Sequence record: NC_052660.1
Reading direction: 5' to 3' (one strand)
Length of the DNA stretch: 64,000 nucleotides
Source: Escherichia phage tuntematon
Shown: positions 18,611-49,718 of the stretch, piece by piece
Layout: every line of letters begins with the position of its first letter
Position numbering within the stretch: position 1 is the first letter of the stretch
Program-made: the position numbers and the translations under genes
Notes under the pieces: generated by a model
Told to the model about the DNA's origin: nothing
Databases searched by the model: none
The model's input: only the letters and a program-made list of their open reading frames with translations

Positions 18611-19153
18611 TCACAAATATCGTCTTTGCGGTATTTTGTCTGGGAAAAGTATTTCGATCAGTTTGTTATGATATTTGCCTAAAAGATTCTGCCCTTTCCA
18701 GGTGGCAGGGTTTAGCACCCCTGGTTCATACATCCCCATTCCAATTCCGTAAACCTTATCGTAGGGGCTTGCTTCAACAAACGTTTTGTATTGGTAAAGG
18801 TGTAAGTCTGCATACAAATCTGGATTCTGTACATATTTCAAGCATAAACCTCGCATAACAATACGCTCACGGTTCTCTTCCCATACGTTGTTATCAAAAT
18901 CCGACACTGCCCTACCCATACGTTTGTAATAAGCTTGGATCTTCTCATCTTTCCGTATCAAACTATGAGTCAGAATAGCCTGTGCAGTGTTGTGGTCATT
19001 AAAAAGCAAAGCTTTACGCCACATCATGTATTGTTCGACACAATTAAATGTCTGATTGTAACCTGGTTCGGTTTCTGTAAAGGGTGCAATATACCAATTA
19101 CTAAAAACATCTTTATGTGAAAAGAAGAATACATATTCGTCAGTTATTCTCAT
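18611..19153 (-). CDS. NADAR-family (YbiA-like) protein
   Basis: FFFSHKDVFSNW, CVEQYMMWRKA and WKGQNLLGKYHNKLIE match NADAR/DUF1768 hallmarks (E. coli YbiA: FYSTSDDYGDFSNF, SEHYFQAQKF, GKGKNRLGYLLMELR). Confidence 0.75.
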   Translation of the reverse strand: MRITDEYVFFFSHKDVFSNWYIAPFTETEPGYNQTFNCVEQYMMWRKALLFNDHNTAQAILTHSLIRKDEKIQAYYKRMGRAVSDFDNNVWEENRERIVMRGLCLKYVQNPDLYADLHLYQYKTFVEASPYDKVYGIGMGMYEPGVLNPATWKGQNLLGKYHNKLIEILFPDKIPQRRYL

Positions 19154-31921: not shown

Positions 31922-32475
31922 ACACAGGTGTGATTGCCGAAGCCATCCAGAGTTATGGACGCTTTGCTGAAATGTTAGATGTTCCTTATTTAGTGGATGC
32001 AGATATTTTGGCATTCACACTGCCACCTGGCAAAGAAGATGCTCCTTTGGGGCATCCTAATGGGAAGTTTTATGTTGCCAGTGCCGAGCAATCATTCTTG
32101 CAAATGGAAAAGGATGGCTACGAGTTTATCGCTGGTCATCCCTACATGGCCCTGACACCATGTTACCGCACAGAGGAAGTGTTGGATGATTCTCACTTCA
32201 ACATCTTCTTGAAGCTGGAGTTGATTGAGTTCTATCCCAGCTTTGGTGAAGTGAAAGAGTATGCCGAAGAAATGCGATACTTCTTCTGGACCTACTACAA
32301 AGTCCAAACAAGAATTGTAGAAACAGAAATAGGGCTTGACGTGGAAGACATGAATGGTTTAGAATTAGGGTCATTCGGAACAAGATTGTCCCCACAAGGT
32401 CATCCATATATTTATGCAACAGCCATAGCCGAACCTCGTGCATCTATGGCAATTAACAGGAGGAATCATGATTAA
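31918..32475 (+). CDS. hypothetical protein
   Basis: ORF-track ORF. Confidence 0.55.
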   Translation: MNTGVIAEAIQSYGRFAEMLDVPYLVDADILAFTLPPGKEDAPLGHPNGKFYVASAEQSFLQMEKDGYEFIAGHPYMALTPCYRTEEVLDDSHFNIFLKLELIEFYPSFGEVKEYAEEMRYFFWTYYKVQTRIVETEIGLDVEDMNGLELGSFGTRLSPQGHPYIYATAIAEPRASMAINRRNHD

Positions 32476-33856
32476 TAAATTTGCCCGTAAACAGGAAGTT
32501 GCTGAAGCAGCACGTCGCGCTGGTGTGTATGACAAATTGTGTGAAGGTATTGTGAAGGTGTATGGCTGGGAGGGAGAAGATGATCCAACCTGTTCAGGTG
32601 ATTTTGCAATGAACGATATGACCTTCCCATATATTTCCTACAATGCCTCCACTGGTGAAATAAACGGTGTAACCAGCACCAGTGTTGATCGTTATCCAGA
32701 CGCAGAACAAACCACAGGAGGTTACATGTTAGATCTGATTCTTAAGAAATCAGGGTTATTGGGAATCGAAGACGTTTTCGTAGATGCAGATAGTTTATCA
32801 TTAGGAGATGTTGTTAAACTACTGGTAGACTTTAGATTTGCAACAGGTAAAAGCTTCTGGAAGCCAGAAGATGCTGAACGTTTGAAGACAATCGACCCAA
32901 GTATGTATGAACTGCCACAATATAAAGATAAACAATTCCGCAAGGTTATCTTCTTTGATCGTCAAGCAGGTTTAGATGCAATGCATATTGAAGTTGGGGA
33001 TTTACCACGCCCACACTCTGCTGCTACTGGTGATCGCAGCCTTGTAGAAGTCACGGCCCAAGAATTTAAAAATATGTTTGCTGCGAAATACGATGAAGCT
33101 GCGCCTGTGCCAAGTATTGAGGAGCAAGAGGAAGAACAGTTTGTAGCGGAAGATACTGCATTTGAATATCTGCCGAACACAGGTGTTATGCCTTCAGAAG
33201 ATTTCGTGCAGGTTCGCTTCAACAATGGTCAAACAGATGTTGCTAAGGGAACAGTATTCACTTGGAATATCGACAATCTGGAAGAGTGGGCGATTAAAGA
33301 ATACTTCATTCTCCCGCGCACGGCAAAATACAACTATAATAATGGTGGACACCGCCCTTGTGGTGGTCACGTAGAAGTTCTCTTTCGTGACGGAACTACG
33401 GATAGTGGATCGGCTACGCATTTCACTTGGGGTCATGTTGGATATGATCGGGATATTGTTGGTTGGCTTCCAACTAACAACCCTAAACCACGTTACCGTA
33501 AGCCTCGTAAGAAGCCGCCAGTAGGTAAGAAGAGTGTTGTTCGTGTCCTTTACACTACACAGCAGACATACACATTTAAAAATGTGGTAGACGTGCAAGT
33601 GACCGAGGAGCGAGTTTATATCCAATATGATCGTGAAGTTACAGAGGGTATTAAAGAATCGGTTACTACCGAAATTGAAAATAAGCTTGTTATGGCAATC
33701 ATTGTTGAAGAAAGTAAAGTAGAGAACGGTAAAGCCTACACTGTTCGTGATAGCTTCTTGCGTAACATTGATGGAACTTGGGATTATAATGGACACGATG
33801 GGACCGCTGTAAAGAACGGTAAGATCATGGGAAGACAATTCCTCTCCAAACGATAA
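32468..33856 (+). CDS. hypothetical protein (462 aa)
   Basis: Start moved to ATG 32468 behind RBS AGGAGG; basic segment PRYRKPRKKPPVGKK. Confidence 0.55.
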   Translation: MINKFARKQEVAEAARRAGVYDKLCEGIVKVYGWEGEDDPTCSGDFAMNDMTFPYISYNASTGEINGVTSTSVDRYPDAEQTTGGYMLDLILKKSGLLGIEDVFVDADSLSLGDVVKLLVDFRFATGKSFWKPEDAERLKTIDPSMYELPQYKDKQFRKVIFFDRQAGLDAMHIEVGDLPRPHSAATGDRSLVEVTAQEFKNMFAAKYDEAAPVPSIEEQEEEQFVAEDTAFEYLPNTGVMPSEDFVQVRFNNGQTDVAKGTVFTWNIDNLEEWAIKEYFILPRTAKYNYNNGGHRPCGGHVEVLFRDGTTDSGSATHFTWGHVGYDRDIVGWLPTNNPKPRYRKPRKKPPVGKKSVVRVLYTTQQTYTFKNVVDVQVTEERVYIQYDREVTEGIKESVTTEIENKLVMAIIVEESKVENGKAYTVRDSFLRNIDGTWDYNGHDGTAVKNGKIMGRQFLSKR

Positions 33857-33863
33857 AACTTAA

Positions 33864-33886
33864 AGGCGCACTTTGCGCCTTTTTTG
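33864..33886 (+). terminator. rho-independent terminator
   Basis: aggcgca-ctt-tgcgcct then TTTTTT. Confidence 0.8.
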
Positions 33887-36458: not shown

Positions 36459-37064
36459 ATGCAACATAGTGTAGTAGTCAACATGCCGAATAGTGGGGAT
36501 AAATCTTTTGGTGTTCCTGCTAAAAAAGTGTGGAAAGCCCATTTTCATCTTACTTTATCTAACGTTAGTTCTGAAGAGTTGATGAAAGCAGCTAAGATTA
36601 TTGGTGCCAAATGCACAACAATTGATTTACATCGGGATACAAAGTCTCAACGTGATCGTATGTTAACAAAGTATCAAAGCGATCTCGACACTACTTTAAT
36701 GTTGCAGTGTGTAGAAAAACTTGAGAATGCAGGTTTCAATGTTGTTCGTTACAAACTGGAACGAATGTTTAAACATGTTGCCTGTGTTCTTTTCATGGAT
36801 CTAAGTAAAGAAAATTACGGAGAAGTTCACATTAAGACTTCAGCAAGTGATCCCGAAGTAGAAACAAACTTCTTCCGTATTTCTTCTAATGCTGAAGAAA
36901 TTGATTACCGATTTTATAATGCTCGCTTATATTCCGCAGAAGATAAGTTGCGTTTCAATGAAGCGTATGATATGCTCTTGAACAGTGGGATACAGATAAA
37001 AGGCTACCACATAGAACAAGTGGTAGTGGACAGTAATCTTAACTTAGACGCATGGTGGGCTTAA
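36459..37064 (+). CDS. hypothetical protein
   Basis: ORF-track ORF; one HxTx motif (HFHLTL) but no confident family. Confidence 0.55.
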   Translation: MQHSVVVNMPNSGDKSFGVPAKKVWKAHFHLTLSNVSSEELMKAAKIIGAKCTTIDLHRDTKSQRDRMLTKYQSDLDTTLMLQCVEKLENAGFNVVRYKLERMFKHVACVLFMDLSKENYGEVHIKTSASDPEVETNFFRISSNAEEIDYRFYNARLYSAEDKLRFNEAYDMLLNSGIQIKGYHIEQVVVDSNLNLDAWWA

Positions 37065-37065
37065 T

Positions 37066-37722
37066 ATGACTATTAAACATATCTCTTTTGATGTATGGAA
37101 CACACTGATCACAGCAAACTCCAATTACGCAGACATGCGAGCCTGGACTATCGCAAAATATGGAGATATTACGGAAGTTGAAGCAAGAGCAGCTTATAAA
37201 AAAATCAAAAAGGAACTGGATAATGCAGCACTTCAAGGCAAAGCCGAGTGTGCAGCATACGCCTGGGAAAGACTCGGTTCTGAACTTGGGATAACGCCTT
37301 GGAAGTCTGCAAAGCTTCGTTTCGAGTGTGAACAGTGGTTCCTTAAGTTTCCACCACACGTAGCCGTAGATCTGCCGATGTACTTGCTGTATCTTTCTGG
37401 GCGTTATGATTTGAGTATTAAGAGCAATACCAACTTCATATCAGGGGATATTCTGCGTCGTGCTTGTAAGTTTGATAGTTGGAATTGTTTTGAGTTCACC
37501 CATTTCTCGGATGAAGCTTTACTTTGTAAACCAGATCCGCGATTCTTTGCTCGCACGCTCACGTATTCTCCGATCCCTCTGTTAGGGCACGAAGTATTGC
37601 ACGTAGGCGATAGTGAAGAATATGATGGAAAATGTGTTGACTTAGGATTTAACTTCTGTCATATTAAGAACCCTAACGACTTACTAGAGAAACTTAAAAG
37701 AGGAGAAATTGTAAATGCGTAA
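37066..37722 (+). CDS. HAD-superfamily hydrolase
   Basis: Motif I FDVWNTL (dehalogenase-like DxYxTL type) and motif IV VGDSEEYD. Confidence 0.55.
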   Translation: MTIKHISFDVWNTLITANSNYADMRAWTIAKYGDITEVEARAAYKKIKKELDNAALQGKAECAAYAWERLGSELGITPWKSAKLRFECEQWFLKFPPHVAVDLPMYLLYLSGRYDLSIKSNTNFISGDILRRACKFDSWNCFEFTHFSDEALLCKPDPRFFARTLTYSPIPLLGHEVLHVGDSEEYDGKCVDLGFNFCHIKNPNDLLEKLKRGEIVNA

Positions 37723-38542
37723 TCAAACTCAAATTTTTGCAAATAAATTTGATGACCTGGAAACTGCTACTTTTGATATCCAAGATTATTCAAAATTGAA
37801 ATTTGGTAGTAACCAAGCCGCGCGTCGTATGGGTAAAGAATTGGCACTTCAGTTTTTTGCTCAAGTGGCAATGAAACATATTGGGGAACAATTTGTTATC
37901 ATTCCTTCTCCTTACAACCATGTGCATAATGCTGCAACAATGATGACAGATCATTTTATTAATTACTTTAATATGTTGCAAGCACAATATGATCAAGGTC
38001 GTTCAGCAGAACTGGACATTATTCATCGTAAAGTTAGCTATATCAACGATTATGGTTTCTTGGATAAAGCTAGTCGTAAGAAACTTATTGATGGGGATAC
38101 ATTCTACTGTAACAAAGAATTCTGGGGGGATAAGAAGCTTGTATTCATTGATGATGTAAATATCACTGGAACGCATGAAGACAAACTGATTGAGATCCTT
38201 AATGAAAATCAAGTTAAAAATGATGTTTACTTCCTGTATTTTGCAAAATATGAAGGTAATCAAGCAGATACCGAAGCTAAACTGAATTTTAACTACATTA
38301 ATACACCGGAAGCGTTTGTTAAAATGATTAATGAAGAACGTGATGCACAGTGTCTTGTTCGTCCTATTAAGTATCTTATGGGCCAAAATCATGAAGACTT
38401 CAAAATCATTCTTAGCCAATTGCCACATTACTATGTAGAGCAACTTTTCTTTGGATGCTTGGGAGAAGGTTACAACCGAATTTCAAAGTATGCTGAAAAC
38501 TTTGAATTCTTGGATCGTTACACAAAACAACACATTCTGTAA
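37715..38542 (+). CDS. type I phosphoribosyltransferase-fold protein
   Basis: PRPP-binding loop KLVFIDDVNITGTHEDK. Confidence 0.65.
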   Translation: MRNQTQIFANKFDDLETATFDIQDYSKLKFGSNQAARRMGKELALQFFAQVAMKHIGEQFVIIPSPYNHVHNAATMMTDHFINYFNMLQAQYDQGRSAELDIIHRKVSYINDYGFLDKASRKKLIDGDTFYCNKEFWGDKKLVFIDDVNITGTHEDKLIEILNENQVKNDVYFLYFAKYEGNQADTEAKLNFNYINTPEAFVKMINEERDAQCLVRPIKYLMGQNHEDFKIILSQLPHYYVEQLFFGCLGEGYNRISKYAENFEFLDRYTKQHIL

Positions 38543-38555
38543 TAAGGAGCTAAAA

Positions 38556-39029
38556 ATGCTTAAAATGAAAACAGGTAATCTTATTGATGCCGCTAAAGCA
38601 GGTGAAGTAACTGTTATTGCTCATTGTTGCAACTGTATGTGTAATATGGGGGCAGGTATTGCCCCACAAATCAAACGAGCATTTCCTTACGCATATGCAG
38701 CAGACTTAGACACAATGGCTGGTGATCAAAGTAAACTAGGTTGTTTTAGTTTAGGGGTGCCAGACGAACAATCAGACCCTTTGGTATATAATCTATACGG
38801 GCAATACCGTTACGGATACAATGCTAAAGGTCGTCAGTTGGACTATGATGCACTTTACGATGCACTAATAGCTATGGCTAACGATTTGCTTCTCCGTGAC
38901 CAAAAATGTAAGATCGGCTTACCTATGATTGGCGCTGGACATGCTGGAGGTAATTGGGCTATCATCCAAGTGATGATTGAAGAAACTTTAGTAAAAACAG
39001 GTCACGATGTGACTATTTATAAACTTTAA
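38556..39029 (+). CDS. macrodomain protein (ADP-ribose binding/hydrolase)
   Basis: VTVIAHCCNCMCNMGAGIAPQIKRAFP and IGLPMIGAGHAGG match macrodomain signature blocks; start moved to ATG 38556 behind AAGGAG. Confidence 0.7.
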   Translation: MLKMKTGNLIDAAKAGEVTVIAHCCNCMCNMGAGIAPQIKRAFPYAYAADLDTMAGDQSKLGCFSLGVPDEQSDPLVYNLYGQYRYGYNAKGRQLDYDALYDALIAMANDLLLRDQKCKIGLPMIGAGHAGGNWAIIQVMIEETLVKTGHDVTIYKL

Positions 39030-39041
39030 GAGGAGATTAGT

Positions 39042-39263
39042 ATGGGTGTTTTTGCAGGTATTGTTGCAGTGGTAAGCTTTTTTGTTATTGCTTTTATGCT
39101 TAGTTTGATTCCAGCTTGGTTACTGTTGCTGGCTTACAACTATGTTGCTGAAGTTATGGGTCATGCAGATATCACTGTCCCAGTAACCTTCTGGACCGTG
39201 GTTTGTGTTTCGTTTATTCTGGCTGTATTACGAGGAATCTTTTCCTCTCATTCAACAAAATAA
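39042..39263 (+). CDS. small membrane protein
   Basis: Two hydrophobic helices. Confidence 0.5.
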   Translation: MGVFAGIVAVVSFFVIAFMLSLIPAWLLLLAYNYVAEVMGHADITVPVTFWTVVCVSFILAVLRGIFSSHSTK

Positions 39264-39342
39264 GTGTTGACATAGTTCTTAAAAAGAGTAAGATATATCA
39301 CATGAAGCGGGGAATAGTTCCCCGCAAAGAGAGGAGAAAAGA

Positions 39343-40317
39343 ATGCAACTTGGTTTCCCAATTATTGATGTAGTTGTTTTAGTTGGTATTTTAGCATTGT
39401 CTATTGGTATTGATTTCTTTGGTCACAAAGAAAATAAAGAAATTTCATTCAAATCCGCAGTTGGTTGGTCGATCTTTTGGATTGGTGTATCATTAGCTTA
39501 TTATGGTTTTGTATACTTCCAACATGGTGCCGATTTTGCTAACTTGTTTTTAAGTGGATATGTGTTGGAAAAATCTTTGTCGGTAGATAACTTGGTAGTA
39601 TTTGTAGCAGTATTCGCAAGTTTTGGTATTAAAAGCACACACTTGCAGCACAAGATTCTACTTTGGGGTATTGCAGGTGCGATTGTCTTCCGAGGTGTGT
39701 TTGTAGCAGTAGGCACTTACTTGTTAAGTTTGGGCTGGTATGTTAATATCTTCTTCGGTGCGGTCATCCTTTTCTGTGCAGCTAAAATGGTATTTGCTGG
39801 AGATAATGACGCAGAAGTTGATTACTCTAAACACTGGGCTACCCGTATTGTTCGTAAACTGTTCCCTGTATCTAATAAAATGGATGGGGAGAAGTTCTTC
39901 ACAATCGAAAATGGTGTTCGTGTAGCAACTCCAGCTTTGGTTTGCGTATTCGTGATGGAAATGGTGGATGTAATCTTTGCAGTAGATTCGGTTCCAGCGG
40001 TGATCGCAGTGACACAAGAACCCCTGCTTGTATTCTCTTCGATGTTATGTGCAATCTTAGGTCTACGTGCTCTGTTCTTTGTTCTTAGTGTCGCACTGAA
40101 GTATCTGGTTCACTTGGAGAAAGCAGTTATTGTGGTTCTGGTGTTTGTAGGCGTTAAACTGATGTATCACCCGTTTGCAGAAACATTGCATGAGAAAATC
40201 AGTTTCCTGCCAGCACATATTGATCCAACTGTTAGTATGTATATCGTGCTTGGTACTTTGGCCCTTGGTGTTATTGCAAGCTTTATCTTCCCTGAAAAAG
40301 AAGAAGCTACTGTTTAA
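39343..40317 (+). CDS. TerC-family integral membrane protein
   Basis: Polytopic membrane protein with LEKSLSVDNLVVFVAVF motif typical of TerC. Confidence 0.6.
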   Translation: MQLGFPIIDVVVLVGILALSIGIDFFGHKENKEISFKSAVGWSIFWIGVSLAYYGFVYFQHGADFANLFLSGYVLEKSLSVDNLVVFVAVFASFGIKSTHLQHKILLWGIAGAIVFRGVFVAVGTYLLSLGWYVNIFFGAVILFCAAKMVFAGDNDAEVDYSKHWATRIVRKLFPVSNKMDGEKFFTIENGVRVATPALVCVFVMEMVDVIFAVDSVPAVIAVTQEPLLVFSSMLCAILGLRALFFVLSVALKYLVHLEKAVIVVLVFVGVKLMYHPFAETLHEKISFLPAHIDPTVSMYIVLGTLALGVIASFIFPEKEEATV

Positions 40318-40323
40318 TAAATG

Positions 40324-40348
40324 AGCCTCCTTCGGGAGGCTATTTTAT
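40324..40348 (+). terminator. rho-independent terminator
   Basis: agcctcc-ttcg-ggaggct then ATTTTAT. Confidence 0.75.
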
Positions 40349-49034: not shown

Positions 49035-49718
49035 ATGGAAAATATTAAAATCGGAGTGGGTGTTATCACTGTAGGTGTCCGTCCACTTAAAGACTACCTT
49101 GTAACAGATCCACGTGCAGATTTTCGAGTATTCAACGATCCAGATCGTAAAGGTGTAGCTTATGCCAGGAATGAACTTATGCACCAGTTTTATGAAGAAG
49201 GTTATGATTATTGGTTTATTTTTGACGACGATTGCTACCCAGTCATGGAGGGATGGGAAACATATTTTGTAGATCAAGCTGTCTCTGGAGGATGGGATTT
49301 CTTTGGTATGCCGGAGTACTTCAAAGATAAAGTTGTTGGAAGCAAAGGAGAAGTTATTCTCTGGGAACTTGCAATGTGTCAATTTGCAATGTATTCTCGT
49401 GCTGTTGTTGAGAAGATGGGTTATTTCCGTCCTTACACTCACGGTTATGGTTTTGAAGATGCTGAATGGGGACACCGTTTGCAAGCTGCTGGTTTGAATC
49501 ATGGTATTCAGGCAACACCTTGTCCACTTCGTATCATGGCTTATATCCACCCAGACGATGTTTTTGGAAACAATCCTATGCCTTTTGCTAACCTGACAAA
49601 AGAAGAGAAAGAGGCTGCTATTGGGATTAACTGGGAAGAATATAAAGCATCTTTAGAGGATATTAAAAATGGGAAAATCCGAATTTCCTATGAGGAGGCA
49701 CTAGCACATGTCAAATAA
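49035..49718 (+). CDS. glycosyltransferase, GT-A fold (family 2-like)
   Basis: FIFDDDCYP and YGFEDAEWGHR resemble GT2 signature blocks. Confidence 0.6.
   Translation: MENIKIGVGVITVGVRPLKDYLVTDPRADFRVFNDPDRKGVAYARNELMHQFYEEGYDYWFIFDDDCYPVMEGWETYFVDQAVSGGWDFFGMPEYFKDKVVGSKGEVILWELAMCQFAMYSRAVVEKMGYFRPYTHGYGFEDAEWGHRLQAAGLNHGIQATPCPLRIMAYIHPDDVFGNNPMPFANLTKEEKEAAIGINWEEYKASLEDIKNGKIRISYEEALAHVK

Follow-up and report, generated by a model that had tools for sequence, protein, structure and literature searches.

The gene at positions 38556 to 39029 (plus strand) of the stretch of the Escherichia phage tuntematon genome analyzed here (NC_052660.1; 64,000 nucleotides [nt], referred to below as the window) encodes a well-conserved macrodomain protein of 157 amino acids (aa). 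By analogy with characterized homologues, the protein is probably an orphan-antitoxin-like ADP-ribosylglycohydrolase that would remove the ADP-ribose that DarT2-type toxins attach to thymidine in single-stranded phage DNA, with a chemistry built on Gln83, Asn26, and a glycine-rich loop. The analysis establishes its fold, its family membership, the conservation of its catalytic residues, its homology to validated enzymes, and its gene-neighborhood links; its substrate, a phenotype against DarTG2, and independence from the Ter genes that surround it are inferred.

Identification of the macrodomain gene

The original prediction for this stretch of DNA described a stand-alone macrodomain protein, a description borne out by profile matches, by the fold in an AlphaFold2 model, and by intact ADP-ribose-binding and catalytic motifs. 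The match to the Pfam Macro profile (PF01661; 22.9 bits against a gathering cutoff of 22; E value, 8.9e-5) is marginal taken alone. The protein also matched PHROG 335 (1e-54), and a phmmer search against PDB sequences returned SCO6735 (5E3B; 1.9e-12), Bt_1257 (1.9e-8), T. aquaticus DarG (1.2e-6), and TARG1 (4.9e-6). The PADLOC model for DarG was matched at 2.7e-10 over model positions 1 to 144 of 329.

The AlphaFold2 model, made with 40 homologues as input, had a mean predicted local distance difference test score of 94.3 and a predicted template modeling score of 0.90. It contains the three-layer alpha/beta/alpha macro fold, and macrodomains accounted for 49 of the 50 PDB matches listed by Foldseek. 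The best of these were TARG1, Bt_1257, DarG (T. aquaticus and M. tuberculosis), and Poa1p, with E values from 1e-11 to 1e-8; those to TARG1, Bt_1257, and DarG had E values from 1e-11 to 1e-9 and template modeling (TM) scores of 0.74 to 0.88. Structural matches in BFVD included an entry labeled "tk.4 [Acinetobacter phage 133]" (E value, 7.8e-15). Two glycine-rich loops, NMGAGIA (residues 30 to 36) and IGAGHAGG (residues 125 to 132), are conserved across the 40 homologues; in TARG1, DarG, and SCO6735, the loops that align with them bind the ligand. The two strings that had been quoted as the macrodomain signature, GEVTVIAHCCNCMCNMGAGIAPQIKRAFP and KIGLPMIGAGHAGGNW, both occur in the 157-aa protein of the open reading frame (ORF) at 38556..39029.

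The coding sequence is 474 nt long (157 codons plus stop). A mechanically called ORF begins farther upstream, at TTG 38451, a start that would produce a 92-nt overlap, in a different frame, with the gene for a phosphoribosyltransferase (PRTase) whose TAA stop codon at 38540-38542 lies just 5' of the macrodomain gene. The original prediction had preferred the ATG at 38556, behind AAGGAG, and had judged 38451 to be too far upstream, and it was right. Read from the sequence, the Shine-Dalgarno motif AAGGAG lies at 38544-38549 (plus strand), 6 nt ahead of the ATG. The position of M1 is the start in 39 of 39 aligned homologues, and the GenBank record of phage SKA64 annotates an identical 474-nt coding sequence; thus, ATG 38556 is the correct start.

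Comparison of the gene with a 90%-identical homologue gave a synonymous rate (dS) of 0.92 and a nonsynonymous rate (dN) of 0.07. The resulting dN/dS of 0.077 indicates purifying selection on a genuine coding sequence. The phage belongs to the phAPEC8-like genus Phapecoctavirus, subfamily Stephanstirmvirinae. Over the 4-kb stretch around the gene, identity is 98.4 to 99.4% with Escherichia phages that include vB_EcoM-P3322, SKA64, and Mt1B1_P17; with phAPEC8 it is about 92%. The gene is labeled "macro domain protein," "putative phosphatase (Macro_Poa1p_like)," or "hypothetical protein" in the GenBank records of relatives, and its annotation as a macrodomain is already public there.

A glutamine-type active site

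By its aligned residues, the protein falls into the TARG1/DarG (ALC1-like) class of macrodomains, within the glutamine-type branch of SCO6735, Bt_1257, and phage T4 Tk.4. H23, N26, Q83, and G126 are invariant among the 40 homologues, and G128 is nearly invariant. H23 and N26, in the H23-C24-C25-N26 stretch (codons at 38622..38633, plus strand), correspond to His24 and Asn27 of SCO6735. G126 and G128 of the diphosphate-binding loop G126-A127-G128 (codons at 38931..38939, plus strand) correspond to Gly126 and Gly128 of SCO6735. Q83 (codon at 38802..38804, plus strand) corresponds to SCO6735 Gln85 and stands at the catalytic Lys position, where lysine is found in TARG1 (Lys84), T. aquaticus DarG (Lys80), and phage PhiKZ gp104 (Lys78) and glutamine is also found in Bt_1257, a phi92-like homologue, and Tk.4. 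Asp125 of TARG1 aligns with Ala130 of the phage protein. A mobile loop about 5 residues longer than that of TARG1 and DarG is a hallmark of the SCO6735 subclass (PMC9411070). In this region TARG1 has a 5-residue gap relative to the phage protein, and there is no gap in the alignment with SCO6735; a multiple alignment gave the same picture.

SCO6735 cleaves ADP-ribose from thymidine on DNA (dT-ADPr), but not from deoxyguanosine (dG-ADPr), and it rescued both E. coli and S. coelicolor from DarT (PMC9411070). Its proposed mechanism is water mediated, with the distal ribose positioned by Gln85 and the catalytic glutamine locked by Asn27; the Q85A substitution abolished activity, and N27S and G128E nearly abolished or substantially lowered it (PMC9411070). 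SCO6735 is inactive on ADP-ribose linked to a 5' phosphate or a 2' OH, which narrows the plausible substrates to base-linked marks.

A similar sequence of events can be proposed for the phage protein. During infection, a host DarT2-type toxin would put ADP-ribose on thymidine in single-stranded phage DNA. The G126-A127-G128 loop would hold the diphosphate of the bound ADP-ribose, and N26 would lock Q83 against the ring oxygen of the distal ribose. An activated water would then hydrolyze the thymine-ribose bond, and replication would continue. This counterdefense would work independently of the Ter-like neighbors of the gene, and a separate NADAR protein would complement the macrodomain by clearing guanine-linked ADP-ribose, the product of DarT1.

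Phage homologues that counter DarTG2

A tblastn search of 50,697 phage records with the 38556 protein found homologues in 2913, among them records of Tequatrovirus T4, Felixounavirus, Pakpunavirus, Vequintavirus, and many jumbo phages. The homologue in a T4-type genome is tk.4, a 155-aa gene between vs and tk (locus L156, 2944-3411). Tk.4 and the 38556 protein are 36% identical over 124 aa (BLASTP; pairwise E value, 1e-20), and phrog_335 is the best match for both (1.3e-65 for Tk.4, the value for the 38556 protein being given above). They also have in common the motifs IAH.CNC, H-x-x-N, NLY[GT]Q, and IGAG. The role of Tk.4 in phage counterdefense was reported in a 2025 preprint: tk.4 was the sole T4 gene depleted from a transposon library on a DarTG2 host, a clean tk.4 knockout made T4 sensitive to DarTG2, and the gene was named adfM (10.1101/2025.11.20.689424).

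PhiKZ gp104, the AdfM of chimalliviruses, removes DarT2-made ADP-ribose from DNA and protects against DarTG2 (PMC13309987). Its identity to the 38556 protein is only 15% (BLASTP E value, 0.01; locus L166, 12518-13003), and gp104, although it is also called AdfM, was apparently acquired separately. There appear to be at least two unrelated-looking phage macrodomain solutions, with the 38556 protein in that of T4 and PHROG 335. As now used, the name AdfM covers two clearly distinct macrodomain branches, Lys-type in PhiKZ gp104 and Gln-type in Tk.4. Another possible precedent, ICP1 AdfB, was set aside because it is not a macrodomain but a mimic that binds DarT.

No darT lies beside the macrodomain gene, which is flanked by the genes for the PRTase and a 73-aa membrane protein. 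Similarly, no recurrent toxin-like neighbor was found among 74 bacterial loci with a macrodomain homologue.

A NADAR companion

The NADAR gene that the original prediction had reported at 18611 is present at 18611..19153 on the minus strand (Pfam NADAR, 7.7e-36). It is about 19 kb from the macrodomain gene, on the opposite strand, and unlinked to it. Its product and the phi92-like NADAR are about 59% identical in aa sequence. The phi92-like gene is carried, with a nucleotide identity of 96.7 to 98.6%, by the BASEL phages PaulScherrer, EmilieFrey (Bas61), and JohannJBalmer; Bas60 to Bas62 are phi92-like isolates. AdfN-Bas60 neutralizes DarT1 and restores plaquing on DarTG1, with no effect on DarTG2 (PMC11825919). 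Judging from this similarity, the protein encoded at 18611 is likely a companion eraser of guanine-linked ADP-ribose. Two erasers for two marks have already been realized experimentally in T4, with 30.3/AdfN and tk.4/AdfM, and the same arrangement in the phAPEC8-like phage is well supported by analogy. The earlier suggestion that the macrodomain reverses dT-ADPr while NADAR handles a second mark is thus in line with what is known of the homologues Tk.4, SCO6735, and phi92-like NADAR.

In other viruses and in bacteria, gene neighborhoods lend independent support to a functional tie between this macrodomain clade and NADAR. In 20 of 80 viral loci (within L019 to L074; for example, L031, 5513-6459), the macrodomain homologue is directly preceded by a NADAR ORF in the same orientation, and the stop and start codons overlap in ten viral loci. 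These NADAR-linked loci are not all independent, as clustering reduces them to 13 macrodomain groups at 90% identity and to 3 at 70%. Among the bacterial loci, NADAR adjoins the macrodomain homologue in 4 of 74 (L095, L128, L134, and L144). The one at L128 (4166-5191) is a fusion, a single 342-aa ORF with the macrodomain homologue N-terminal and Pfam NADAR at residues 177 to 316.

Two further observations concern NADAR genes. At L030 (4761-5774), the ORF immediately 5' of the macrodomain homologue encodes 338 aa and contains both NADAR (3.3e-50) and a nucleoside 2-deoxyribosyltransferase-like domain (8.4e-9). Five records of "Campylobacter phage" (accessions MG065639, MG065645, MG065650, MG065656, and MG065689; phage names A150, A145, B15, C3, and A110a) contain NADAR genes about 97 to 98% identical to those of E. 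coli phi92-like/phAPEC8-like phages. Mislabeling of the host or contamination of the records is the probable cause.

Ter-like surroundings of the gene

The macrodomain gene lies in a run of genes in the order nrdD, nrdG, two small or unknown genes, HAD, PRTase_3, macrodomain, 73-aa membrane protein, and TerC/Alx, followed by SprT-like, TelA, vWA-TerF-like, and TerD genes. The immediate neighbors, all on the plus strand, are a HAD hydrolase (37066-37722) and a ComF-like PRTase_3 (37715-38542; 4.5e-42), which form a conserved pair upstream, and the 73-aa membrane protein (39042-39263) and TerC/Alx (39343-40317; NCBIfam, 2.9e-95) downstream. Terminator-like hairpins upstream of nrdD (33862..33882, plus strand) and just past terC (40324..40341, plus strand), both found by pattern match only, may mark the 5' and 3' boundaries of the block from nrdD to terC.

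An Rfam scan of the whole window returned nothing at the gathering score, indicating that there is no known RNA or riboswitch near the macrodomain gene or upstream of TerC/Alx. In particular, Rfam found no yybP-ykoY-type riboswitch upstream of TerC/Alx (39264-39342), though the best NCBIfam model for that protein is named "R_switched_Alx." A promoter-like site, TTGACA-16-TAAGAT, is present at 39267-39294. A scan for sigma-70 promoters gave 16 matches, fewer than the 21.5 in shuffled sequence, and thus we make no promoter claim.

Several other features of the region deserve mention. The HAD-PRTase_3 pair recurs beside TerD and vWA-TerF-like genes in viral contigs of 150 to 290 kb (L163, L164, and L165), and the pair looks like the actual unit of the phage "Ter-type nucleoside pathway." Just 5' of the pair, and kept in related phages, is a gene (36459-37064, plus strand) for a 201-aa protein (phrog_22504) that has no Pfam match and matches two PADLOC "AbiEi" models (4.7e-13 and 4.4e-12). 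A separate gene 5' of nrdD (32438-33856, plus strand; 472 aa), which takes its label "class III ribonucleotide reductase" only from the SKA64 record, ends at the strong terminator-like hairpin at 33862-33882. Farther downstream, a 227-aa protein (49035-49718, plus strand) has a weak, subthreshold match to the Pfam TET-associated glycosyltransferase (E value, 1e-3; 19.5 bits, with the cutoff at 27.5), which may hint at DNA-modification genes downstream of the Ter-like region.

Alternative functions

Several considerations weigh against removal of thymidine-linked ADP-ribose as the function of the 38556 protein. Identity to the validated proteins is low, 36% for Tk.4 and about 28 to 31% for SCO6735. 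The lysines that position DNA in SCO6735, Lys34 and Lys89, align with A33 and G87 and are not conserved, although K91 and R93 in the mobile-loop region might, from their placement, be stand-ins. The association with NADAR covers only about three macrodomain lineages at 70% identity. The fixed slot of the gene between PRTase_3 and TerC in this lineage could reflect a functional tie. Furthermore, SCO6735-type enzymes also remove uracil-linked ADP-ribose from RNA and have weak activity on the Glu/Asp-linked form in proteins, and therefore thymidine in DNA need not be the sole or main substrate of the 38556 protein.

If the fixed slot does reflect a functional tie, the macrodomain might be a working part of a Ter-like/HAD-PRTase_3 pathway and act on a phosphoribosylated or ADP-ribose-like small molecule produced by the adjacent PRTase and HAD enzymes rather than on nucleic acid, but we consider this very unlikely. 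Tight packing in one co-oriented block between the terminator-like hairpins, with TelA, vWA-TerF, and TerD downstream, would fit such a role, as would the conservation of the order p201-HAD-PRTase_3-macro-tm73-TerC in six loci (L001, L002, L005, L006, L009, and L015) from Phapecoctavirus, phi92-like phages, and two further relatives. However, the phages that keep this order are related, so it may be plain synteny. In the three more distant contigs, L163 to L165, the HAD-PRTase_3 pair stands beside TerD/vWA-TerF with no macrodomain gene within 5 kb, and in the phage of L003 and L164 the macrodomain gene is about 10 kb from the pair. HAD and PRTase genes are near the macrodomain gene in only 6 of 81 loci (L001 to L081), any Ter gene is nearby in only a few more, and most of the 2913 homologue-bearing records are from genera in which Ter genes were not seen. 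The validated homologue Tk.4 is located between vs and tk in T4. This comparison rests on Pfam matches and synteny counts made here; the wider set of viral contigs with the PRTase came from a five-sequence alignment query, as the PRTase protein alone gave one close relative. A survey of NAD/ADP-ribose genes in viruses (PMC9503650) does not mention TerC, TelA, or phAPEC8. The earlier statement that the gene lies inside a Ter-like module is therefore accurate as to physical location, but co-occurrence with the core genes of the module is not obligate, because HAD-PRTase_3 with TerD/vWA occurs macrodomain free. From this, and from the location of most homologues elsewhere, we infer that the macrodomain gene is an accessory gene complete in itself that resides within the Ter-like region without being part of it.

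It is also unlikely that the protein is a general eraser of ADP-ribose from metabolites or proteins, such as an O-acetyl-ADP-ribose deacetylase, an ADP-ribose-1''-phosphate phosphatase, or a Glu/Asp mono-ADP-ribosylhydrolase, serving NAD+ economy or the reversal of protein ADP-ribosylation. The "phosphatase" and "Macro_Poa1p_like" labels in GenBank and PHROG, the weak sequence similarity (E value, 0.0036) and structural similarity to Poa1p, and the ability of SCO6735 and TARG1 to hydrolyze Glu/Asp-ADP-ribosylated proteins all point in this direction. So do the NAD/ADP-ribose gene islands around this macrodomain clade in uncultivated phages (L019 to L074 and other viral loci), in which recurrent neighbors within 3 kb of the homologue are a NAMPT-like PRTase (31 loci), SIR2 (25), NADAR (20), HAD_SAK_2 (18), NMNAT-Nudix (11), and SLOG/YspA (10). 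However, no homologues of NAMPT, SIR2, NMNAT, SLOG, or HAD_SAK_2 were found in the 64-kb window, and thus the island context is not applicable to the 38556 gene. The closest characterized relatives also speak for ADP-ribose linked to a nucleic acid base: SCO6735 is far better on DNA-linked than on protein-linked ADP-ribose and does not act on the 5'-phosphate- or 2'-OH-linked forms, and the phenotype of Tk.4 is specific to DarTG2. The "putative phosphatase" label was judged to be a transferred domain name and not a tested function. Another candidate activity, which we regard as quite unlikely, is removal of a mark on RNA or on another base, such as uracil-linked ADP-ribose, left by a host ADP-ribosyltransferase defense other than DarT2. 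SCO6735, TARG1, and DarG all reverse uracil-linked ADP-ribose on single-stranded RNA (PMC13036486), and the long SCO6735-type mobile loop, which Tk.4 lacks, together with the change of both DNA-positioning lysines makes a shifted substrate preference possible. However, the literature surveyed contained no bacterial antiphage system that makes uracil-ADP-ribosylated RNA, and the adenine-linked mark that CmdT makes on mRNA has so far been described as irreversible. Furthermore, because the same enzymes act on both thymine and uracil marks, an RNA activity would be more an extension of the proposed removal of thymidine-linked ADP-ribose than a replacement for it. The long loop, the loss of both lysines, and the fixed HAD-PRTase_3/TerC slot across Stephanstirmvirinae were not seen together in characterized relatives. 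A slim chance therefore goes to a diverged eraser, for example, of an RNA base mark or of a phosphoribosyl or ADP-ribosyl metabolite of a phage Ter-like, nucleoside-type pathway. If that were the case, ADP-ribose chemistry would be tied to the still-unexplained Ter modules of phages.

Implications

If the 38556 protein does remove ADP-ribose from thymidine, the coliphages of the phAPEC8-like and phi92-like groups, which are broad in host range and popular as candidates for therapy, have a pair of enzymes that together counter both types of DarTG, comparable to Tk.4/AdfM and 30.3/AdfN in T4. The T4 AdfM family is PHROG 335 in its entirety, with homologues in about 2900 of the 50,697 deposited phage genomes, most often under the label "phosphatase" or "hypothetical." Its use of the Gln-type chemistry of SCO6735, not the lysine of DarG, is useful for reannotation and for predicting sensitivity to DarTG.

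The function of the T4 homologue, the biochemistry of SCO6735, and the two-eraser logic in T4 are already established. The concept appeared in print in 2025-2026, and no new biological question is opened here. What is new is modest: the assignment of the phAPEC8/phi92-type protein to the Gln-type, long-loop branch, the equation of PHROG 335 with the T4 AdfM family, and documentation of the adjacency and fusion of NADAR and macrodomain genes.

Comparison with known systems

DarG (T. aquaticus 5M31/5M3E) and the 38556 protein have their macrodomain class in common, their structures are similar (TM score, about 0.76 to 0.82), and the predicted reaction, removal of dT-ADPr on single-stranded DNA, is the same. 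Membership in DarG itself was rejected because three defining features fail: Q83 replaces the catalytic Lys80, the DarT-binding domain is missing, and there is no darT neighbor. The NCBIfam antitoxin_DarG model scored 36.4 bits against a cutoff of 250, and the 157 aa of the protein do not include the C-terminal DarT-binding domain. PhiKZ gp104 is also a phage macrodomain, but it is Lys-type and DarG2-like (N23/K78) and is targeted to the phage nucleus.

TARG1/OARD1 (4J5S) was the top Foldseek match (E value, 1.8e-11; TM score up to 0.88) and has the MGAGIA loop in common with the phage protein. TARG1 strips both thymine- and uracil-linked ADP-ribose. It differs in having Lys84 and Asp125 in place of Q83 and A130 and a shorter mobile loop, and, unlike SCO6735, it acts on 5'-phosphate-linked ADP-ribose.

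Tk.4/AdfM is likewise a stand-alone phage macrodomain of about 155 aa, from an E. coli phage that also carries a separate NADAR gene. Its mobile loop is 5 residues shorter, its gene has the vs-tk location rather than a Ter-like one, and, of the two proteins, only Tk.4 has a demonstrated DarTG2 phenotype. SCO6735 and Bt_1257 (2FG1) differ from the phage protein in that they are encoded by bacterial chromosomal genes and are only about 28 to 31% identical to it. SCO6735 is nonetheless the top sequence match in the PDB, and the two proteins are alike in their His/Asn/Gly-x-Gly residues, their glutamine, their long loop, their single-domain architecture, and the absence of a darT neighbor.

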